Positions 17,846 through 52,737 of a stretch of 64,000 nt of DNA are shown piece by piece. Each line of letters opens with the position of its first letter. Position 1 is the first letter of the stretch. The position numbers were made by a program, and so were the translations under genes. Below the pieces are notes generated by a model. That model saw nothing but the letters and a program-made list of their open reading frames with translations. It was not told the origin of the DNA and searched no databases. Origin of the DNA: a virus; IMG/VR virus record IMGVR_UViG_3300029286_003693, positions 18,731-82,730 of that record; one strand, 5' to 3'.

Positions 17846-19084
17846 CTATCCTATGATGTCTGCGATATCGCAGCCGCTTTCGACCAGTACGTTGAACGCC
17901 CATCGCGTCAGCTCCACATCACCAAGGTCGAGCCCTTCCTGGATGATGATCCCCTGGATGTACGAGTCGATATCCCTGAAGGTCAGGGACTCGCTGGCGA
18001 GCCCTATGAAAGTCCCCACCGGGACCGCCGTAGCGCTGGCGTTGAATGTCTCAAGAGCCGTATTGTTGAGTGACAGGAATGTTACCGCACCGTCCACCAG
18101 CTCCACCGTGTCGTCTGCGAGACAAAGGTAATAGCGCTCGGATTCTGAAATATCGCCTGCATTGAAAGAGTCCTCGGAGGAGCAATACCGGGAGACCCCG
18201 CTCGCCTGTGCCTCTTGGAGTATCAAGAACTCATGGATAAGGTGCCCCAGGAACTCCGAAACGGCATCGTTGAAATCGAAAGTGTCTGTAGCCGTAAGCA
18301 GGAAAAATCGCTCATGCCCCGCTGAATCAAAGACGAACATCTTTTCGGCAATGACATGCAGGACTATGATCCAAGGCGCCGGCGTGTCTTCAAGGAAGAG
18401 ATAGTCATCGGCAATCTTCCCGATGATTTCTTCGATGGTATCGGTATTGACCAGGGAGTCGGCAATCAGGTGGTCCCATCCTTGTAGAATACCGTCCCAC
18501 ACAAAGATCTCCTCGCGGCAGGTAGAAGTGAAAAGGTATTCCTGGGCAACATCATGTCGCATGTTCACAAGGTCGGAAACTGAAAGATAAAGTCGCAGAT
18601 AAACCGGCAGGTATGGCTGCGGTTCCGCCATCTCGATGTTGAAGGACTCAAAGAGCTGCTCCCAGTAATACGGGACTGCGTTCGCGTAAGTGGAGTGAAT
18701 CTGAAGCTCGCTGGAGACCTCTTCCTGGAACGAGTCGCTGCCGCTCATGACAACATCCAAATGCATGTGAGCGACACTGATCGGCGCGACAGGCTTCGTG
18801 TAAACGATATTCAGAACCGATTGTTTTACCCGAGTTTGAGATCCGCCGAGAAGGTCAAAGAAGGCAATGTTATCAGCAGCAAACGCTTGGTGATAAGGCG
18901 TGAAGGCTTCGGCCATACCGAGAGTCTCCTCGATCTGGTCGTTCCAGACGACATACGCCTCGTGGCCCAGGTCGAAAGACTCCTCAACCAGGTCATCGAA
19001 AATCAAACCAGCGACATTCACGTTGCCCTGCTGATATTCGGTGAACCAGAGGTATTCTTCAATTTCCAAGTATGCGTTTGCCAT
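17846..19084 (-). CDS. Acidic, repeat-like tail-module protein
   Basis: 412 aa, very Asp/Glu-rich; start overlaps the upstream stop. Confidence 0.7.
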   Translation of the reverse strand: MANAYLEIEEYLWFTEYQQGNVNVAGLIFDDLVEESFDLGHEAYVVWNDQIEETLGMAEAFTPYHQAFAADNIAFFDLLGGSQTRVKQSVLNIVYTKPVAPISVAHMHLDVVMSGSDSFQEEVSSELQIHSTYANAVPYYWEQLFESFNIEMAEPQPYLPVYLRLYLSVSDLVNMRHDVAQEYLFTSTCREEIFVWDGILQGWDHLIADSLVNTDTIEEIIGKIADDYLFLEDTPAPWIIVLHVIAEKMFVFDSAGHERFFLLTATDTFDFNDAVSEFLGHLIHEFLILQEAQASGVSRYCSSEDSFNAGDISESERYYLCLADDTVELVDGAVTFLSLNNTALETFNASATAVPVGTFIGLASESLTFRDIDSYIQGIIIQEGLDLGDVELTRWAFNVLVESGCDIADIIG

Positions 19085-40899: not shown

Positions 40900-42189
40900 T
40901 CAACCCTCTGCCACCGTTATCAAAAGAGGTTGCACGCTGTTGATCCGTTTGTCGGCTATCTCAACATATTCAGGATTCAGTTCGATCCCGATGAACCCAA
41001 ATCCCTCCGCTGCCGCTGCTTTCCCTGTTGAACCGCTACCCATGAAGGGATCAAGAATCACGCCGCCGGGAGGCGTAACAAGGCGGCAGAGGTAGCGCAT
41101 CAGGGCGGTTGGTTTGACTGTGGGGTGGAAATTACCCTTCGTGTCTGTGTTCTCAACCTTTCGGAGTGTGGTACCGTGGTGGAACTGGGGGCCAGGATTA
41201 TTCAGCCCTTCATTACGATCTTCCCGGCTCGCCTTTGCGCAGTAGAAGAACCGGGCGGTTGAACCGGAGTCGCCGGGGGTGTCGCGCTTTGTAATGTCTG
41301 GGTCCATGTATCCGTAGGTATTCCGGTTAGGTCCTTCAGAATTAAGCCTTCTTTGTCCTGCAGACATCTTCCCGCTCGTCGTCACCGGAAACAGCCCCAC
41401 CACTTGATCGCTGCCGTCATATATAAGGTTGGCAGGCCAGCGTCCGTTTGCACTCACGACCTCTGGCGTGTCGCTCCCTGTCTGATTCATCCCCCATCCA
41501 TTTTTCTCGCTTTTCTTCGAGCGGTTCATTGTCCTCAATTGTGATGCGTCGGCCTTCGGGTCAATTCCCACCCTGCACCCATCGATATTCAATCCCCCCG
41601 TCCCATACTTCAGGACGTTGGCGGCCACGGTACCGATTAAGGGCTTCCGGCAAACCAAGACCGGCTCCCATGCTGGCTTGAGGGCAGTGCCCCAGCCTTC
41701 CCATTGACGGGCGGTATCAGTTGCGGGGGCGGTGATGTCAAAAACCTTTCCACTTCCATCCATGTACCCAATTCCAGTATCCCCTTTACCGTGATTGTCG
41801 AGCTTTATCCTGTGCGGCCCACTGCCGTTTTCGTTGACGCCCACCACTTGCCGTTCTGCCCCCGCCGCCTTGTCGATCGCCTTACTCACATCTAGCGACT
41901 TAGGGAACCCTGAACCATACACCCACATCACGGTATCCCGAATCTCCCACCCCGCATCCTCTATCGCAACAGCCAGCCGGTGAAAGGTTCGTGTCCCACC
42001 AAAGGCCAGCATATACGCACCCGGCTTCGCTACCCTCAATGCCGCTTCCCAAAACGGAACACCCGGCACACCGTGATCCCAATCCTTACCCATGAAGGAA
42101 AGGCCATAAGGAGGATCACAGACGATGGAGTCAACCGATTCGGTTTCAAGCGTTGGCATAATGTTCAGGCAATCGCCCTCATAAATCAT
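40900..42189 (-). CDS. DNA amino-methyltransferase (beta class, DPPY)
   Basis: IVCDPPY motif IV; HPTVKP; ILDPFMGSGSTG motif I. Confidence 0.92.
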   Translation of the reverse strand: MIYEGDCLNIMPTLETESVDSIVCDPPYGLSFMGKDWDHGVPGVPFWEAALRVAKPGAYMLAFGGTRTFHRLAVAIEDAGWEIRDTVMWVYGSGFPKSLDVSKAIDKAAGAERQVVGVNENGSGPHRIKLDNHGKGDTGIGYMDGSGKVFDITAPATDTARQWEGWGTALKPAWEPVLVCRKPLIGTVAANVLKYGTGGLNIDGCRVGIDPKADASQLRTMNRSKKSEKNGWGMNQTGSDTPEVVSANGRWPANLIYDGSDQVVGLFPVTTSGKMSAGQRRLNSEGPNRNTYGYMDPDITKRDTPGDSGSTARFFYCAKASREDRNEGLNNPGPQFHHGTTLRKVENTDTKGNFHPTVKPTALMRYLCRLVTPPGGVILDPFMGSGSTGKAAAAEGFGFIGIELNPEYVEIADKRINSVQPLLITVAEG

Positions 42190-42569
42190 GACTGCATCAT
42201 CCCCACTTTAATATCGGGCCTGTTACTCGCCGGCTGCATGTCGATCACCGTGTTCGGGTCGTCGTACCCTGCCCTGAACGGCGGCATCTTCACGAGGTCG
42301 TCTATCCCATCCATGATCGTGTCTGTTATTGAAGACATCACCTGCACGAACTGACGCTTGCGCGTCGGCACCTCAATGTCAAACAACTTGCAGATTTGCA
42401 GCACCTTACCTGTTATGAACCCCCCGAACTCATCATTGTGCGTGTCGCTGTATTTCCAGAGGTCATCCAGTGTGATGATGAAGCGCTTCTTATTGTCCCG
42501 TTGCGCCCCGTTCAGGATCATGACTGGTTTACCCTTGAAGTATCCGTAGTCCCTCTCGATTACTCTCAT
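42186..42569 (-). CDS. Hypothetical protein
   Basis: 127 aa, coupled to both neighbours by ATGA overlaps. Confidence 0.7.
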   Translation of the reverse strand: MRVIERDYGYFKGKPVMILNGAQRDNKKRFIITLDDLWKYSDTHNDEFGGFITGKVLQICKLFDIEVPTRKRQFVQVMSSITDTIMDGIDDLVKMPPFRAGYDDPNTVIDMQPASNRPDIKVGMMQS

Positions 42570-43759
42570 GCTGTCACCGCGAATAAGAGAGGCTGCACGT
42601 TGTTAATCCGCTTCTCTGCCATTTTTGCATACTCAGGATTTAACTCGATACCGACGAAATTACGGCCTAACTTCTCGGCCACCAGCCCCGTTGTTCCGGC
42701 GCCGGAGAAGGGATCAAGGACGACGCAGGGAGTAGGTTCGTGGTTGTGGGTGCAGGTCGGTCGCCAATCGTTTGTTGCTATCCGTTGTGGCGTATATGTT
42801 GCGCCACTGAGCGACCTAATCCCTGAAGGATTTCCACCCTTATCTGGGAAATAATCTCCAACATCTTTTCGCGCCCTATCGTTCGTAGCACCCGTTTTCT
42901 CCACCATCCTCACCCACGGACTCCCGCACTCGGGGCAGCACCCCTTCTCACTCGTTCCGGCCTTAATACATGGCGTCACAAGGGCTTCGGGGAATGTGGC
43001 AAAATGGGCTCCAGGGAATGGCTGGGTGGGAATAGTCCAGACAGAACGGCAGTTGCGGCCAGTAGGATGGCCAACGCTGCGTTTCCGGCCGATTTTAGTT
43101 GCAGAGCTGGCTTTACTAAATGGGTCTATTAAATCCTTATGTTTTCCACCGATACGGTCTCGGCTTTCCTCCATTTTCTTAATATCAGATGGTCCGCTTT
43201 GACAAGCTTCCTTGATTGCCTCCGCGTCATAGTAATACCGCTGACTCTTAACCAGTAGGAACAAATACTCATGACTCTTTGTCGGTCTGTCCGTTACACT
43301 CTCTGGCATGGGGTTCGGCTTGTGCCAGATAATGTCGGAACGTAACCACCATCCGTCAGCTTGAAGGGCGAAGGCCACGTGCCAGGGGATCCCAATCAGG
43401 TCTTTGGGCTTCAATGTCTTAATATTGGTAGGCATACCAAAACGTGATTTTTCTGTTGATGGCTTACCAAACTCAGTATGTTTTGCTTGATATTCTGGGT
43501 TGCTTCCTGCTTTCCCGCTGCCATTATACGAATCTCCCAAATTCAACCACACCGTCCCGTCATCCCGCAGCACCCTCCGCACTTCCCGGAACACGGCTAC
43601 GAGCTTGGCTACATAGGCGTCTGGCGAATCCTCCAGCCCGATCTGGCCATCCACCCCATAATCCCGAAGGCCGTAATATGGCGGCGATGTCACAACACAC
43701 TGAACAGAATCGGGTTCAAGCGCAGGCATAATGTCCAGGCAATCACCTTGATAAATCAT
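42566..43759 (-). CDS. DNA amino-methyltransferase (beta class, SPPY; probable m4C)
   Basis: VTSPPY; HFATFP; VLDPFSGAGTT; Cys-rich insertion CCPECG. Confidence 0.92.
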   Translation of the reverse strand: MIYQGDCLDIMPALEPDSVQCVVTSPPYYGLRDYGVDGQIGLEDSPDAYVAKLVAVFREVRRVLRDDGTVWLNLGDSYNGSGKAGSNPEYQAKHTEFGKPSTEKSRFGMPTNIKTLKPKDLIGIPWHVAFALQADGWWLRSDIIWHKPNPMPESVTDRPTKSHEYLFLLVKSQRYYYDAEAIKEACQSGPSDIKKMEESRDRIGGKHKDLIDPFSKASSATKIGRKRSVGHPTGRNCRSVWTIPTQPFPGAHFATFPEALVTPCIKAGTSEKGCCPECGSPWVRMVEKTGATNDRARKDVGDYFPDKGGNPSGIRSLSGATYTPQRIATNDWRPTCTHNHEPTPCVVLDPFSGAGTTGLVAEKLGRNFVGIELNPEYAKMAEKRINNVQPLLFAVTA

Positions 43760-45093
43760 GCGGCCCACCCCGATAGCACCTGCCTGGTTCCTTGTTTCTG
43801 AATCCTCTTTGCCTTATACCCAACGGCAAATGTCCTGAAAGAATCCGCCCCGTGAGAGCAGTGGTCATGCAGCGGTGTCCGCTTGAGAATCTTTTTTTCT
43901 TCGTCGTATTCGGCCCTGTAGCCTTCCAAAGCCGATATGCCGGGTGAACACTTGCGTTCGTCAAACCAACACGAGCCAAGGGCGTTTCTGACGGCCTCGA
44001 TGCCGTTCATGACGGCGTCCGTGTTCCGGGGGCGCTCAACGACGATGATGGGCTTGATCCCCAGCTCCTCGGCTACCTCAACCCTGGACTTCGCGTGCTC
44101 CCCGGCGGACATTTCTCGTACCGCTGCGTCGTGGGGCATATAGTGATCACCGTAAACATAGGGCTTCTCTTTCAGGATCTTGGCGTAGTGAGCCAGGCCC
44201 ATGCCACTGTTCTCGTAATAATCGATGCACCTGGTCTCCTTGCCGATGAACTGCGCGAACCAGATCGTCATGCTGTCGTCCACACCCAGATCCCAGAACG
44301 TGTAGACCTCGGCGCCAGTCTCGTAGGGCACGCGGGTGATGCGGCCCTCCTTGTGAGCCAGCGCCATCTGCTTGCCGTAGTACGCGCCCATCACTGCGCC
44401 CTGGAACGAGCAGAAATACTCCTGCTGAAACATAGCCTCGCCCATCTCTTCGCCGAACGTTCCAACCAGCTCGGCACGGATCTCCTCCAATTTCACCTTG
44501 GTGAAGACAGGGGTGTCATCTGCGGTCAGGACTTGAGCGAACCAACCGGGTGTGATGCGGGCGAAATCCAACATTGTTTTCAGATGATTGTCGCCGCGGG
44601 ATGTGCTGATGAACGCGGCCCAGCCGCCATTTTCTTCGAGTATCGGGGAAAGGTAAGCCCATGACTGCGGGTTTGATAGCGCGTATTCGGAGAAGACGAT
44701 GCCGATCGGTGGGCTGCCGACCAAGGCATTGTAATTGTCGGAGCCCACAAGCTGCCAGGAAGAGCCGCCAACGAGGCCAATGTACATATCGGTGCTTCTC
44801 GTACTGGTCCTCATCTCCATCGGAAACGCCTCGTCGATCCTCTTCATGCCTGTGCGGGGGTTGACGGCTTCCCAAATCGCCTTACGGCACTGATTGAACT
44901 GTGGGAGCATGTGCCAGTAGTTTCCGACACGCTCCTGCGATGCCGTGGCGGTGAAGTGAAGGGCAATATCATCCTTCCCCCAGCGACGATGGGCGACCTC
45001 GACGGCACGCTTCCCACCATTCTCCAGGTAATCCCAGAGGGCGATCTGATCGTCGCGGGGTTCCCACCCGTTATGAGGTAGCTCGACTCCCAT
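43756..45093 (-). CDS. terL: Terminase large subunit
   Basis: HRRWGKD Walker A variant, IVFSEY, ISTSRG, WDLGVDD, SHGADSFR nuclease motif. Confidence 0.92.
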   Translation of the reverse strand: MGVELPHNGWEPRDDQIALWDYLENGGKRAVEVAHRRWGKDDIALHFTATASQERVGNYWHMLPQFNQCRKAIWEAVNPRTGMKRIDEAFPMEMRTSTRSTDMYIGLVGGSSWQLVGSDNYNALVGSPPIGIVFSEYALSNPQSWAYLSPILEENGGWAAFISTSRGDNHLKTMLDFARITPGWFAQVLTADDTPVFTKVKLEEIRAELVGTFGEEMGEAMFQQEYFCSFQGAVMGAYYGKQMALAHKEGRITRVPYETGAEVYTFWDLGVDDSMTIWFAQFIGKETRCIDYYENSGMGLAHYAKILKEKPYVYGDHYMPHDAAVREMSAGEHAKSRVEVAEELGIKPIIVVERPRNTDAVMNGIEAVRNALGSCWFDERKCSPGISALEGYRAEYDEEKKILKRTPLHDHCSHGADSFRTFAVGYKAKRIQKQGTRQVLSGWAA

Positions 45094-47161: not shown

Positions 47162-47545
47162 TTATTTATCCGCTACTGCCTCGTCATGTTGCTTCAGCCA
47201 TTCGTCGATCTCGACTTTATAGAAGACTGGCCTCCCGTCCACCCAATACCGGAGAGGAGCCCTGTAACGCTTGATCCACCGTTTCGCTGACTTCCAGGAC
47301 CCGGCGTTGAGATACTTTCGGCACGCTTCCGGCCCGATGATCCAACCCATGGCGCAGTCGGCCATGCACTTCCTGACCAGCTTCTCCATCTGCGTATGGA
47401 ATTCCTTGTTCCAGGCATCCGACCACTCCTCGGCAGGCATTTCCCCTCTCGTTTTCCCACATTTTTTATTGGCTTTGTCTTCCGCCGCGGGGATCACCCC
47501 TTCGCGCATCTCGATATAATCCTTGTTGATCTTGGCTTTCGGCAT
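47162..47545 (-). CDS. HTH DNA-binding protein (excisionase/AlpA-like C-terminus); possible late-gene regulator
   Basis: IIGPEACRKYL...SWKSAKRWI...GRPVFYKVEIDEWL; last gene before the late region. Confidence 0.6.
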   Translation of the reverse strand: MPKAKINKDYIEMREGVIPAAEDKANKKCGKTRGEMPAEEWSDAWNKEFHTQMEKLVRKCMADCAMGWIIGPEACRKYLNAGSWKSAKRWIKRYRAPLRYWVDGRPVFYKVEIDEWLKQHDEAVADK

Positions 47546-47618
47546 CTGCTTCTCCTTCTGGGCTTACCGCTATTAAATTCACTCCGTTATTTTAAGATTC
47601 CGAAGAGTGCACTAATTA

Positions 47619-47771
47619 TCCTTGCCTTGCCGAGCCACACCCGGCCTCGCCACACTGAGCCATGTCTAACAGTGCCTGTCCTTGCCAGAACTACCCCAAC
47701 CCAATCTCGCCTTGCCCAACCACATCCTGCCTTATCCTGCCGCACCTGGCCCCGCCATGCCAAAACTTGCC
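47619..47771 (-). repeat. (GGY-NN)n pentamer array C, 31 units; candidate guide RNA
   Basis: Unbroken 5-nt phase; 20 of 31 trimers are exactly GGY and the rest differ by one base; starts 2 nt after a stop codon. Confidence 0.9.
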
Positions 47772-48204
47772 GACTACCGGAACGCCTCCAATGTCTTCAC
47801 ATACGGAAGCTGATCTTGAGTCTCTTGCACTCTTGCTTCGATCTTTTTGATGCTGCTACCCTTCGTCATCACAGCCATGACTCCCAGCACAGACGCATAA
47901 GTGTTTAGCCTGACCTTCTCCTCATTCGGCATGATCGACATATCGGATATACAGGCCATCCGATTGAGAGACCTCCTGGTCGTTCGTTTGATATGGGCAA
48001 TGCTGAATGCGCCCGTGTTGATAATCTCGGTATCATCCTGTAACCCCGCACATTATTTTGATTGAAGCGGGTATCTTTTTATCACGATGTTTTGTATGAG
48101 AGGCAGAGTCGTGCACATTGATTTGATCATAAAGAAAGAGGGCAACCGAAGGTTGATTGGTTTGGCCGCCATCCCCGTTGGTTACCCTCTCAGAAAGCGG
48201 TATC

Positions 48205-48660
48205 TTGATACTACACCTTGCGGTCGATGTAAAGGTTTTATTCGAGAGGGGGAAGAGGTTCCCATGGTTGAAGCATTTGCGGTGCCCTCGATGTGGGAGC
48301 GCGAGACTATGGGGGCACGGATTTGCGGAGCGATATTTTGAGGGATTCGGCAAGTGTTTATGGGTGAAGCGGTTCCGCTGTCCGGATTGTCTTGCCATCC
48401 ATACCTGCCGGCCATTGGGATTTTTGAAAGGTTTTCGATATTCTGCCGGCGTGATCCGTTCAAGTCTGTTGAAAAAGATTACGGAGAACGCCTGGGTCAG
48501 AGGCGTTGTGCGGCAGAACCAGCAGTACTGGTTTCGTTGTCTTCGGTTTCGGATCTCCGGTCGCTGTAATGTGAACAAGCCCGCCATCGATTCCATCGCG
48601 TTATTTTTTTCCGAGAGAATCTTTCCCGTGACAGAACATTTTGCGCCGCTGCGCATATGA
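48205..48660 (+). CDS. Cys-rich accessory protein of the element (DUF6431-like); start uncertain
   Basis: CPRC...HGFAER...KRFRCPDC...HT. Confidence 0.7.
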   Translation: MILHLAVDVKVLFERGKRFPWLKHLRCPRCGSARLWGHGFAERYFEGFGKCLWVKRFRCPDCLAIHTCRPLGFLKGFRYSAGVIRSSLLKKITENAWVRGVVRQNQQYWFRCLRFRISGRCNVNKPAIDSIALFFSERIFPVTEHFAPLRI

Positions 48661-48743
48661 TGGTTTCCCCACCTTCTTCTTGCGTCGATAAGTCCATGAC
48701 GCCTCTGGTATGGGTAGCGAAAATCTTTCAGGAGGTGTTTGCT

Positions 48744-50057
48744 ATGGACGAAGAAGGAAAAAGACGGATTGCGCAGTTTCGGTTCGGGGTGATTCACGAT
48801 CTGATCGGTGACAGGAAGCTGAGTCGAGGAGAGCAAAAGAGGCTTCTTCGGGAGAAGTCTTCCTGCACATGGGAGATCCCCGGTTCCGGACGGAGTTACA
48901 TCAGCGCCTCGACGATCCTGAGTTGGACCAGACGGTATGAAAAGGGAGGCCGCAGGATCGAGAGCCTCTACCCGGAAGCCCGGTGCGATCGAGGACGGCC
49001 CCGTATCCTCGACGATGAAACGATCCTTTCCCTGGTGGAGCTCAAAAAACAGATGAAGGAGGTCTCCCTGCCGGTCATCCTGCGAGAGGCAAAACTCCGG
49101 AAGATCTTTCATCCGGGGATCAAGGTTCATCCCGCCACCATTTACCGCCTGTTCAAAGAACGGGGTTTGATGAAGCGGGAAGAAGTTCGGATAGATCGCA
49201 GACGCTTCGAGGCGGAACTGCCCAACGACATCTGGCAGTCCGACGGCATGCACGGCCCCCGGATCACTCACGAAGGGAAAGAAAGAAAAACCTATCTGTT
49301 CGCTTTCATCGACGACATGAGCCGGCTGATCTGCCACGCAGAGTTTTTCTGCCATGAGCGGGTGGAACATTACACCGCCGCCTTGAGAGTCGCCCTTGCG
49401 AAACGGGGCTTGCCGAGGAAGCTCTATGTGGACAACGGCCCCGCCTTTCGATCTCATCTGCTGGCTCACGCCACTGCTTCTCTGGGCATTGCCCTGATTC
49501 ACTCCACCCCCTACCAGCCCCAGGGCCGGGGAAAAATCGAACGGTTCTTCCGCACCCTGCGCATGCAGTTTCTCAGTACATGCCCCGAGGGGCTTTCCCT
49601 GGAAAAACTCAATGACGGCCTCAACCGATGGCTCGACGAGCAGTATAACGTCACCATACATTCCAGCACGAAGCAGACACCCTTGAACCGCTATCTCAAA
49701 CATGCCCATCTGCTCCGGGAAGCCCCGAAAGATTTAAATGATTACTTCCGCATCCGTACCACCCGAAAGGTGGATCGGGACCGAACCGTTTCGCTTAACG
49801 GCATGCTCTATGAAGCCCCGATCCCTCTGATCGACAAGACGATCACTCTGCTGTATCATGATGGCGACCCCGCACGAATCGAGGCCTTCCATGAGAGCGT
49901 CTCCCACGGCATGCTCGTTCCCCTGGACATGAAGATCAACTGCCGAATCCGAAGAGAACACCACATCGTCAAACTTCTATCATCGGAGCAAGCCCCGGAA
50001 GAACAACCCAAATACACCGGCGGAAAACTCTTCGGGGAGGTGGACCATGGGCTATAA
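48744..50057 (+). CDS. DDE transposase/integrase (rve core, Mu-like C-terminus)
   Basis: WQSD, FIDDMSR, YVDNG, GKIERFF; AGGAGG RBS. Confidence 0.95.
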   Translation: MDEEGKRRIAQFRFGVIHDLIGDRKLSRGEQKRLLREKSSCTWEIPGSGRSYISASTILSWTRRYEKGGRRIESLYPEARCDRGRPRILDDETILSLVELKKQMKEVSLPVILREAKLRKIFHPGIKVHPATIYRLFKERGLMKREEVRIDRRRFEAELPNDIWQSDGMHGPRITHEGKERKTYLFAFIDDMSRLICHAEFFCHERVEHYTAALRVALAKRGLPRKLYVDNGPAFRSHLLAHATASLGIALIHSTPYQPQGRGKIERFFRTLRMQFLSTCPEGLSLEKLNDGLNRWLDEQYNVTIHSSTKQTPLNRYLKHAHLLREAPKDLNDYFRIRTTRKVDRDRTVSLNGMLYEAPIPLIDKTITLLYHDGDPARIEAFHESVSHGMLVPLDMKINCRIRREHHIVKLLSSEQAPEEQPKYTGGKLFGEVDHGL

Positions 50058-50847
50058 AACCTTCTTCAGCTTCCAGAAAGAACCCTTCTCTCAAGATATC
50101 CGCGTGGAAGATCTCTACCCCCTGCCGGGTCTCCAGGCCGCCTCGGAACGCCTCCTTTATGCCCTTTCCCTCGGCGCCGCCTCCATCATCACCGGCGACG
50201 TGGGAAGCGGCAAATCCACAGCCCTCAGATACGCCACCGCCAAACTCCACCCTTCTCAGTACAAGGTCGTCTCGGTCATCGCCTCCACCGGCTCCATGGC
50301 CGACACCCTTAGGCAAATCTGCAATGGCTTCGATCTGGATGGGCAAACCAACTCACTTGCCAGGCTCACCAAAACCCTGCGCACAGCCATCCTGGAAATC
50401 TCCCAGAGAAAGCAGATCCCCGTATTGATCATCGATGAGGCCTCTCTGATGAGGCTGGAAATCTTCGCCCAGCTCCACACCTTAAGCCAGTTCGACATGG
50501 ATTCCAAACCCCTGCTCCCGATCGTCCTGGCAGGCCAAAACAACCTCGTCGACAAGCTCATGTTCCATGCCTCAAGACCTCTGGCTTCCCGAATCATCGG
50601 CAGAAGCCATCTTGAAGGCCTTAAATACAAAGATATGGCGGGATACATCCAGCACCACCTGAAGATCGCCGGCAGTAAAGACCAATTGTTCTGTGATGAA
50701 GCCATACTCGCCATCCACCAAGGCTCAGGCGGCCTCCTCAGAAGGGCCAACCTCCTGGCAAAAGGAGCCCTCATGGCCGCGGCGAATGAAAAATGCCAGC
50801 TCGTTTCACCAGAACATGTCAGAATGGCGTCCACCGAAATCATGTGA
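50047..50847 (+). CDS. ExeA-like AAA+ ATPase (transposition helper)
   Basis: GDVGSGKS Walker A, LIIDEA Walker B, LAGQ. Confidence 0.93.
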   Translation: MGYKTFFSFQKEPFSQDIRVEDLYPLPGLQAASERLLYALSLGAASIITGDVGSGKSTALRYATAKLHPSQYKVVSVIASTGSMADTLRQICNGFDLDGQTNSLARLTKTLRTAILEISQRKQIPVLIIDEASLMRLEIFAQLHTLSQFDMDSKPLLPIVLAGQNNLVDKLMFHASRPLASRIIGRSHLEGLKYKDMAGYIQHHLKIAGSKDQLFCDEAILAIHQGSGGLLRRANLLAKGALMAAANEKCQLVSPEHVRMASTEIM

Positions 50848-51211
50848 AAAGAACACCAAACACCGGAAGGGATAACCCATCCCTTCCGGTCAATCTCTAT
50901 TGCAAAACATCAAACGATTGTAAGATTATCGAGTCAATTTATTGTGCGACGTTACACATCCAGGCGTTTCAGCCCCTGGTTGATTACCACGCCGAATATC
51001 TTCCCATCTTCACGTTCTGCCATGCTGCGGGCCGTGTTGAGAAAACCACGCCCTTCCTTCTGGACATCCCGCCCGATAATCCCATTAAGCTCTTCGTATG
51101 TGACAAAATCTCCGATGTCCATCTCCGCCAACCGCTGATACATCAACCTTGCGTCCGCGCTTGCCTCCCTGATCCATTTCTTTTCCATTCCCCTCCCCTT
51201 CCTGTTAGAAA

Positions 51212-51309
51212 ACCTTGCCTAGCCTCACTGTTCCACGCCCTGCCAAGCCACGCCTTGACGCGCCCAGTCTAATCTTTCCTTGCCGAGCCGCTCCCAGCCC
51301 AGCCCTGTC
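51212..51309 (-). repeat. (GGY-NN)n pentamer array B, 20 units; candidate guide RNA
   Basis: Unbroken 5-nt phase; 12 of 20 exact GGY; starts 2 nt after the Cas7-like stop codon. Confidence 0.9.
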
Positions 51310-51311
51310 TT

Positions 51312-51869
51312 TTATCCCCAGACGATTTCCTTCACCTGAAATCGCCCGTAGAACCCGTTGTTCTGAGGTCTGAAACGCCCAATACCGATAAACTTGCCCG
51401 CCTCTTCAAGGTGTAGCCTGAAAACATCCTCGGTGATCGTCTCATCAAGAATGAAAAATGATACCGGGCCGGACCATACCGGGATAACCGGGAAGCATCT
51501 CTTGACCCGCTTTCCGCCTCCACGCCTCCCATCCGACGGGACGAAATACCACTCACCCGCCACGTCTTCCTTTTTGACTGGCAAGACAAGAGCCTCAGTT
51601 ACCAGCACCCCTGCTTCTATGTGCTTCGTGAAGGTCGATTTCCCCTTTCCGGGAATCTGGATTGACAGATACTTCGCCACCGACGACAGGCAATTCTTGA
51701 AGCTCATAGGAGGAATGAAAACATTACCCTGCTCATTTGCGTGCATTCTATCCCGCCACGTTCTCGTTTCGTAATCATCGGGCCTTTCCTTTTGGAGCTT
51801 TGCCGTCTCGTAGAACTTTGATTGACTGTAAGGACTGATGCTTTCCAACTGACAAATTGCTGTTTTCAT
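51312..51869 (-). CDS. Stand-alone RAMP/Cas7-like protein
   Basis: 185 aa; N-terminal strand ending in SP, FIPPMSFKNCL, and C-terminal Gly-rich loop AGKFIGIGRFRPQNNGFYGRFQV characteristic of RAMP proteins. Confidence 0.75.
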   Translation of the reverse strand: MKTAICQLESISPYSQSKFYETAKLQKERPDDYETRTWRDRMHANEQGNVFIPPMSFKNCLSSVAKYLSIQIPGKGKSTFTKHIEAGVLVTEALVLPVKKEDVAGEWYFVPSDGRRGGGKRVKRCFPVIPVWSGPVSFFILDETITEDVFRLHLEEAGKFIGIGRFRPQNNGFYGRFQVKEIVWG

Positions 51870-51900
51870 AGATTTCCCCTCTCTCGTTTGTGATTAAATA

Positions 51901-51958
51901 ACCTTGCCTTGCCAAATCATACTATGCCCAGCCTTGCCTGGCCGCACCGAGCCTAACC
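51901..51958 (-). repeat. (GGY-NN)n pentamer array A, 12 units; candidate guide RNA
   Basis: GGT-TA GGC-TC GGT-GC GGC-CA GGC-AA GGC-TG GGC-AT AGT-AT GAT-TT GGC-AA GGC-AA GGT. Confidence 0.9.
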
Positions 51959-52198
51959 CTGACGAGTATTTTCGTCCCCTTTCTCCTCCTCGATCCTGAG
52001 CCCCCTCCGGCCAGCCCGAACAACTTGTGAGACGAACCGTCCGACCGACTCCGCCGCCAGGAGATCGGCGTACATTTCCGGCTGCACTCCAGCGTATTGA
52101 TAAATGCCGCCCGACTTGAATTCCACTTCCAGGACCTTCGTCTCCGCGTCGTACCCGACTGACTTCACATTTGTTGACTTAACCGGCTTTCTTTCCAT
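51953..52198 (-). CDS. KTSC domain protein
   Basis: MERKPVKSTNVKSVGYDAETKVLEVEFKSGGIYQYAGV...LLAAESVGRF. Confidence 0.9.
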   Translation of the reverse strand: MERKPVKSTNVKSVGYDAETKVLEVEFKSGGIYQYAGVQPEMYADLLAAESVGRFVSQVVRAGRRGLRIEEEKGDENTRQG

Positions 52199-52352
52199 TG
52201 CGTTCCCCCTTATTGTCGCACCCCGAACATATATCAGTTCCAGCCTCACAAGATTCTCCACATACATCACAGATATTCCCTGTGCCGTTGCACGTTAAGC
52301 AATCCGTATCTTTCGCCCCGTACCCCGATCCATCGCAATCTTGGCATTCCAT
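52179..52352 (-). CDS. Small Cys-rich zinc-finger protein (57 aa, below ORF-track cutoff)
   Basis: MECQDCDGSG...CLTCNGTG..CDVC...CSGC; GGAGGT RBS. Confidence 0.7.
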   Translation of the reverse strand: MECQDCDGSGYGAKDTDCLTCNGTGNICDVCGESCEAGTDICSGCDNKGERNGKKAG

Positions 52353-52368
52353 AACCACCTCCGTTGAC

Positions 52369-52737
52369 TTAGAAGTTCACGGCTTTCTTTCTAAAACTCT
52401 CCAGAATTCCCCTCAGTTCCACTCGCTTGGCGACATAGTCCATGTCTTTCACAGCCTCGGATGACCTCCGGCGAAGCTGATAGTATCGGTCTCCCATTCG
52501 TTCGACCATGAATTCCTTGAATAGCCTCGGGTGATTGTGTGCAAATCCGGTATGGCACTGCGTACAGAGGCCGATAACCGCCTCCGGGTCGAAGGCGGTA
52601 GCGAGCCGGTCGCGCTTGAATAAGTGATGACCAGCTTCGCCCAGTCTACTACACTCTGGGTTCTGGCAGCCCTTGTCTCTTGCGAGGGCGATCATCTGGA
52701 TCAGCTTATAGCAATCGTCTTTGGCTTTTGAACTCAT
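52369..52737 (-). CDS. NinG/Rap-like HNH-type nuclease
   Basis: RDKGCQNPEC...AGHH...LCTQCH; located after the replication genes. Confidence 0.7.
   Translation of the reverse strand: MSSKAKDDCYKLIQMIALARDKGCQNPECSRLGEAGHHLFKRDRLATAFDPEAVIGLCTQCHTGFAHNHPRLFKEFMVERMGDRYYQLRRRSSEAVKDMDYVAKRVELRGILESFRKKAVNF

Follow-up and report, generated by a model that had tools for sequence, protein, structure and literature searches.

What gene has a transposon cut in two in the freshwater prophage of IMG/VR virus record IMGVR_UViG_3300029286_003693, and what would the loss of that gene mean for the locus in which it sits? The window analysed here is a stretch of 64,000 nucleotides (nt), positions 18,731 to 82,730 of this 82.7-kb provirus record, and coordinates below are window positions (Table 1). 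The split gene stands next to a gene for a 185-amino-acid (aa) protein with a Cas7 fold, among arrays of pentamer repeats, and it is very probably the vap (Vipr-accessory protein) gene of a VIPR locus. In a bioRxiv preprint (10.64898/2026.04.26.720920), VIPR systems are described as phage-borne loci that combine a minimal RAMP protein, Vipr, with vrRNAs and an accessory vap gene, and whose outcome is the transcriptional silencing of competing phages and satellites. A vrRNA has 9-16 YNNGG repeats, whose NN bases read double-stranded DNA while one base is skipped in every repeat (10.64898/2026.04.26.720920), and Vipr polymerises along it, according to the 2026 preprints on Escherichia phage SUSP1 and a Pseudomonas fulva prophage. 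Seven VIPR types and six kinds of vap are distinguished in 10.64898/2026.04.26.720920, some of the vap products being predicted winged-helix-like DNA binders.

The split gene and its place in a VIPR locus

An earlier reading made from the letters of the window (the sequence-only reading) had proposed that an intact gene reappears once the insertion is taken out. Excising 48039-50956 together with one copy of CATCC does join 51188-50962 to 48038-47774 into a frame of 492 nt, with 163 codons and no stop but the terminal one. Its N part (75 aa) and C part (87 aa) align indel-free to intact homologues of 160-166 aa, with a junction that reads ..GLKR-L-DDTEI.., and identity to the closest intact homologue, P0010 (163 aa), is 92% for the N part and 79% for the C part. 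Viral contig L002 has an uninterrupted allele at 76-77% identity. The family is large and fast-evolving: a word search collected 26 clusters and a profile search 3,326 representatives at E <= 1e-3 (2,164 at E <= 1e-10), the best 150 profile matches being nearly all 160-185 aa long. Neither half, nor an intact homologue, matched a family in Pfam, PHROGs or NCBIfam, and a Pfam search over 110 family members returned scattered single matches only. Matches in BFVD were three uncharacterised phage proteins, those in Atlas were unnamed viral clusters, and a scan of the genome collection with a closer alignment of the family found none.

The identity of the gene is indicated by its neighbour. The 185-aa protein is very conserved (3,111 clusters; 48 invariant columns among 19 sequences) and is modelled by AlphaFold with a pLDDT of 90.2. 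Type VII Cas7 (best E 3.5e-7), Csm3, Cmr4 and Cas7-11 head the 115 Foldseek matches at E <= 1e-3; VIA aligned 144 residues with Csm3 (6ae2_B) at Z 10.3 and a root-mean-square deviation (rmsd) of 2.7, and all 18 rows listed, of 25 counted, at Z >= 8 are CRISPR RAMP proteins. Judged from sequence profiles, the 185-aa family is homologous to the 195-aa Vipr of SUSP1 (hhalign probability 96.2%, E 2.5e-9; 29% identity over 112 aligned columns); tblastn of the protein against phage records gave one weak match. The protein has the character of the minimal RAMP/Cas7-like Vipr of a VIPR system, and we refer to its gene as vipr. With the backbone proteins of class 1 CRISPR systems (Csm3, Cmr4, type VII Cas7, Csf2) it has the fold in common, including a C-terminal glycine-rich GxGxFRP..G.YGRF segment, whereas the window locus has no CRISPR array and no other cas genes, its repeats have a period of 5 nt rather than 6 nt, and the split gene is without a demonstrable counterpart among Cas proteins.

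The repeats around these genes form three arrays, A to C, all intergenic, each in a single phase and on the coding strand. Runs of GG[CT] spaced by 5 nt occur in the 64 kb only at these arrays; of 20 shuffles, one produced a single run of this sort. At least four tandem YNNGG (GGY-NN) units thus stand in intergenic DNA beside vipr on the same strand, as in VIPR arrays. The order claimed by the sequence-only reading, with a KTSC gene, array A, the Cas7-like gene, array B, the split gene and array C in succession, is the order we find. Arrays A and C end alike, in GGCAA GGCAA GG followed by an AT-rich stretch, and B ends similarly, in what would by sequence be a 3' tail; Rfam gave 0 matches. Arrays flank the genes in most related loci as well, and 73 of 92 loci have a 100-nt window in which at least 8 of 20 in-phase trinucleotides are identical. 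Across loci, the dominant trinucleotide is GGC in 54, CGC in 15 and GAC in 8. In two loci the periodicity is unbroken for almost 800 bp between vap and vipr (L078 1714-2501, L083 199-986); these stretches, far beyond the 9-16 repeats of a vrRNA, are presumably many tandem guides. A further locus carries four or five tandem arrays 3' of its vap homologue (L003 5466-5890), with repeats that read GCAAC/GCGAC, not GGC, and every array closes with one shared short motif that a T-rich, TTTTAAA-like stretch follows. Early ideas that the arrays were a sigma-54 promoter (its spacing one base off by eye), G-quadruplexes, TRAP-like RNA sites, partition centromeres, pac sites or Rho sites were dropped because the neighbour has a Cas7 fold and the literature explains the repeats.

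The locus in the phiSUSP1 sequence runs from an array through a 195-aa gene (vipr) and a 146-aa gene (vap1) to three GGTNN arrays. Set beside this type II VIPR of SUSP1 and the P. fulva prophage, the window locus is alike in being a minimal two-gene phage locus with a single-domain RAMP protein, in having GGY/NN pentamer arrays upstream and downstream, and in carrying a small gene for a predicted DNA binder directly after vipr. It differs in that its repeats are mostly GGC and those of SUSP1 are GGT, in that its arrays take up the entire space from one protein gene to the next, with no hairpin tail of the SUSP1 kind observed, and in that its vap is broken by a transposon; its Vipr is distant, at the identity given above. 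Because the locus fits the VIPR preprints and the SUSP1 comparison in these respects, we take the split gene to be its vap.

Fold of the accessory protein and its possible roles

The structure of the product was approached through an AlphaFold model of the intact L002 homologue, with a pLDDT of 77 overall and above 90 for residues 11-80. The model has a winged helix of H-S-H-H-S-S topology at residues 10-76, followed by a helical domain of lower confidence at residues 78-162. VIA placed residues 9-76 on the winged-helix domain of PurR (Z 7.2, rmsd 2.3, 66 residues). Foldseek against the PDB gave no match at E <= 1e-3, and its weak rows were mostly winged-helix proteins (for example GntR/FadR, PurR, PadR and the winged-helix domains of SelB). 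The model topology and the PurR match agree with the earlier guess that the N half is winged-helix-like, and together with the position of the gene they give the picture of a small winged-helix-like protein, a predicted DNA binder, encoded directly after vipr. We make no claim on the fold of the C-terminal domain, since the VIA listing was dominated by generic helical bundles matching it. A motif at the end of the protein, L..KTLE.F, is among the best-kept positions (84-93% of 110 diverse members) in a region where model confidence is low, a combination that would suit a docking motif. The insertion, at residues 77-78, falls on the boundary between the winged-helix and the C-terminal helical domains.

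Could a protein of this fold act on the locus rather than with Vipr? It might chiefly be the transcription factor of the locus, binding the double-stranded arrays or nearby DNA and controlling vipr, itself and the arrays, with no action alongside the Vipr-vrRNA complex on its targets. We regard this as improbable, although it is compatible with the gene being the vap of a VIPR locus. The predicted winged helix would suit such a regulator, as would the array that lies directly upstream of each gene of the module and ends 10-70 nt before its Shine-Dalgarno site; Vap also evolves fast and Vipr is very conserved, as expected if Vap tracked a changing DNA site. Experiments in 10.64898/2026.04.26.720920 bear on both sides: plasmid-borne Vipr and vrRNA sufficed without vap1 to repress GFP and block lambda, as a regulatory Vap would allow, but vap1 co-expressed in trans, on a plasmid of its own, still enhanced defence, which weighs against this reading. 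Deletion of vap1 in SUSP1 cost ~1e4 in plaquing on a satellite lysogen, the same as deletion of vipr, according to 10.64898/2026.10.15.759431; this likeness of phenotypes in natural infection fits either role. The role of the accessory gene is left open in 10.64898/2026.04.26.720927.

Linkage of the family to vipr

The sequence-only reading had cast the split gene as a partner or effector of the array system, a proposal that would fail if homologues occurred mostly without the Cas7-like gene or arrays. Seeding with the Cas7-like gene gave 183 confirmed viral loci, and of the best 80, which were kept, 75 have a family member beside that gene on the same strand; genomic loci seeded in the same way have one in 10 of 14 cases; in six contigs found via the split gene itself, the Cas7-like gene is adjacent in all six. 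Homologues are thus not mostly found apart from the Cas7-like gene or arrays. Linkage of this extent is that of an accessory vap gene of VIPR systems, and with the Cas7 fold of the neighbour and the fit to VIPR systems it bears out the proposed partnership. In 75 of the 85 linked loci vap is downstream of vipr and in 10 it is upstream, with a median gap of 132 nt. The loci with swapped order (L010, L028, L034, L070, L077, L078, L082, L083, L084, L098) still have arrays between and around the genes. Two of the five viral misses are contigs that end just past the gene, and L030 has a 173-aa open reading frame (ORF) that by eye looks like a diverged member. Of the four genomic misses, two are contigs that are short or truncated and the other two are vipr fragments. 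The fragments are N-terminal (L102 2474-2779, profile positions 1-92; L103 2441-2701, profile positions 4-69), lie without vap and without arrays in contigs of a Thermoguttaceae and a Mycobacterium metagenome-assembled genome, and are decayed VIPR remnants.

The same counts bear on whether the gene is an unrelated phage regulator that happens to sit beside the Cas7-like gene in one phage lineage. The lack of a Pfam, PHROG or NCBIfam family and the two loci that have room for the gene and lack it would be in keeping with this, but the adjacency spans Betaproteobacteria to Dehalococcoidales, Planctomycetota, Cyanobacteria and Cytophagia, and it persists despite the swapped order, and we consider a chance neighbour very unlikely. 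The hosts named for the genomic loci range from Accumulibacter and Propionivibrio to Dehalococcoidales, Planctomycetota, a cyanobacterium and Cytophagia.

Several observations nevertheless weigh against assigning the gene to a VIPR locus as its vap, or limit what follows from the assignment. L081 and L088 have room beside vipr, yet other genes stand there and no vap is recognisable. Many of the viral loci are near-identical prophages and four contigs repeat ones already found via Vap, so the linkage counts overstate the number of independent events. A self-target search, confined to the window, found no target of arrays A to C, its scores being at shuffle level. Comparison of the Vap family with SUSP1 Vap1 by hhalign gave probabilities of 4.4% and 2.5%, and tblastn of Vap against 50,697 phage records, which bears on homology to Vap1, gave no match. 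A targeted hmmsearch of a 172-sequence Vap profile against Vap1 was weak (14.5 bits, E 1.9e-6 over 2 targets), with a colinear alignment of 57-142 to 55-140, and a search with Vap1 found 3 proteins only, too few for a profile. Homology to the sole studied Vap is therefore not established, and what is known of Vap1 may not transfer; because the two accessory proteins are not demonstrably homologous, we file the gene as vap and not as vap1.

The two loci without a recognisable vap share a feature of their own, a 195-aa variant of Vipr (L081 115-702, L088 303-890), and L081 has a 403-aa ORF downstream that is possibly another kind of accessory gene.

The insertion and its consequences

To ask whether the insertion is real, contigs of four public runs (X1-X4) from three studies were aligned to the region; the source sample may be represented by X1 and X2. 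The left junction is bridged with 0 differences by contigs of all four runs, and the right junction by contigs of X1 and X2; the insertion is no artefact of assembly. Samples of both 2019 and 2021 contain the allele, and no RNA run was found to contain the stretch. The empty site, 48038 joined to 50962, was not found in any X1-X4 contig, and since contigs drop rare variants this shows nothing about its absence. An assembly chimera, in which the prophage contig was misjoined to a multi-copy transposon, is hardly credible: the transposon family is multi-copy in these metagenomes (variant copies, loose ends with other flanks) and its proteins fall into clusters of 22 (transposase, at 90% identity) and 136 members, mostly on ~3-kb contigs, but a perfect 5-bp duplication lies precisely at the two junctions, the frame continues exactly across, and X3 and X4, independent runs from another study, bridge the left junction without a difference. 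A recent insertion, as the sequence-only reading proposed, is consistent with gene halves and transposon genes that are all intact and with a duplication that is perfect, but no date can be assigned to it.

Table 1. Features of the VIPR locus and of the inserted transposon, in window positions
Feature	Position	Strand	Remarks
Array C	47617-47771	-	31 pentamers sharing a single phase, of which 20 are GGYNN; begins 2 nt past the stop codon of vap
vap, 3' part	47774-48038	-	C-terminal helical domain, 87 residues and stop; own start missing
Target-site duplication CATCC, left copy	48034-48038		read directly
Transposon, 2,918 bp	48039-50956	+	imperfect terminal inverted repeats TGTAAC...GTTACA
Cys-rich transposon ORF, DUF6431-like	48157-48660	+	weak match, E 5.8e-5, 23.3 bits, under the cut-off of 26.6
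DDE transposase (rve core, HTH_32)	48744-50057	+	437-aa form, the form on record
AAA_22 / ExeA-like ATPase	50047-50847	+	gene overlaps the transposase gene
Hairpin, 13-bp stem	50862-50890		3' of the ATPase gene; terminator-like on the minus strand as well
Target-site duplication CATCC, right copy	50957-50961		read directly
vap, 5' part	50957-51188	-	77 native residues, the whole winged-helix domain
Array B	51210-51304	-	19 pentamers, 12 of them GGYNN
vipr, 185-aa Cas7/RAMP-fold protein	51312-51869	-	AlphaFold, Foldseek, VIA, hhalign
Array A	51899-51958	-	12 pentamers, 10 of them GGYNN; ends GGCAA GGCAA GGTTA
KTSC gene	51953-52270	-	Pfam E 8.3e-22

The general marks of a DDE transposon are all present: terminal inverted repeats, a target-site duplication and the rve catalytic core. 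The duplication of CATCC is a perfect 5 bp on either flank. The ends form inverted repeats that are imperfect, agreeing at 12 of the first 14 bases, and have a subterminal GATGTTTTG block in common. An upstream ATG at 48657 would extend the transposase to 466 aa. Read on the minus strand (50890-50862), the stem of the hairpin is followed by a T-rich run. The element is single-copy in the provirus record, and the two protein clusters, found mostly on short contigs, are what a repeated mobile element usually shows. The transposase stays under the NCBIfam family cut-offs (IS481, 182.3 bits against 224; IS21, 43.5 against 160), and we therefore leave the element unclassified among two-gene DDE transposons; its ATPase matches AAA_22 and not IstB_IS21 in Pfam. 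With IS21 (IstA/IstB), Tn552, Mu (A/B) and Tn7 (TnsB/TnsC) it has in common an ATPase gene that comes after an rve-type transposase gene and overlaps it, subterminal repeats at ends of the TG...CA type, and a duplication of 5 bp; it differs from them by the ATPase, which is ExeA-like and not IstB-like, and by the extra DUF6431-like ORF.

Runs X1-X4 also contain diverged transposon copies in other contexts. Copies in contigs of X1, X2 and X4 skip ~385-406 bp within 48097-48511 (joints 48097>48504 and 48126>48511), which is most of the DUF6431-like ORF, and another variant is ~10% diverged over 48216-48686; these skipping and diverged copies indicate that several versions of the element coexist in these communities.

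The wider surroundings of the locus, on the minus strand, run from a replisome organiser and a DnaC-like loader (both by Pfam) through KTSC, vipr, the split gene and a 127-aa gene to the small and large terminase genes. The KTSC gene, whose stop codon overlaps the first repeat of array A (51953-51958), is not a conserved neighbour, as it was not found beside vipr in five other contigs checked. Just downstream of the large terminase gene lies a pair of DNA methyltransferase-like ORFs (40900-43768; 429 and 400 aa), in which DPPY and SPPY motifs can be made out by eye, flanking a 127-aa ORF.

What would the insertion have done to the locus? A DDE transposon with an AAA+ helper appears to have entered at codons 77-78 with a 5-bp duplication, exactly between the two domains of Vap, and would have left a winged-helix stub of 78 aa that can be translated, with the C-terminal part orphaned. 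In its present form, the ORF at 50952-51188 has the 77 native residues and a Val before a TAA supplied by the transposon, and the 5' part retains a GGAGGGG ribosome site. Full-length Vap could then not be made, the stub may be, and Vap function would be lost or altered. On the analogy with Vap1, a relation that is unproven, loss of Vap should weaken or abolish the natural function of the locus. The insertion would also reach beyond vap, with 2.9 kb of opposite-strand genes and a hairpin now lying between array C and the group of vipr, arrays A and B. The minus strand of 47400-52400 showed no sigma-70-like site, and given this, the opposite-strand genes and the terminator-like hairpin, we predict from the sequence that array C is probably cut off from upstream transcription, which makes plausible the suggestion of the sequence-only reading that the insertion may uncouple array C from its promoter.

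A natural loss of VIPR protein genes has a parallel in the relatives of SUSP1. Among 97 of them, vipr-vap1 was lost by one 1,114-bp deletion and solo vrRNAs were kept, as reported in 10.64898/2026.10.15.759431. There as here a VIPR protein gene is gone and arrays are retained; there both genes were deleted, whereas here the insertion is in vap only and vipr is intact.

VIPR systems were described only in 2026, and the window adds an environmental locus far from the E. coli and Pseudomonas examples, together with evidence for the very large size of its winged-helix accessory family and for a tight linkage of that family to vipr in many bacterial phyla. The kind of locus is already in print; specific to the window is the clean transposon knock-out of vap at a domain boundary, a natural allele in which vap alone is cut and vipr and two arrays are intact. 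We speculate, with low confidence, that the Vap family of 3,326 representatives, not demonstrably related to Vap1, is a separate class of VIPR accessory in which the winged helix binds DNA and the C-terminal domain, with its L..KTLE.F motif, docks on the Vipr filament, so that the transposon would have made a natural separation-of-function allele. If this were true, the free winged-helix stub could compete for DNA, and the Vipr-vrRNA complex would still silence its targets without its helper. The insertion could also be a case of one mobile element disarming another's weapon.

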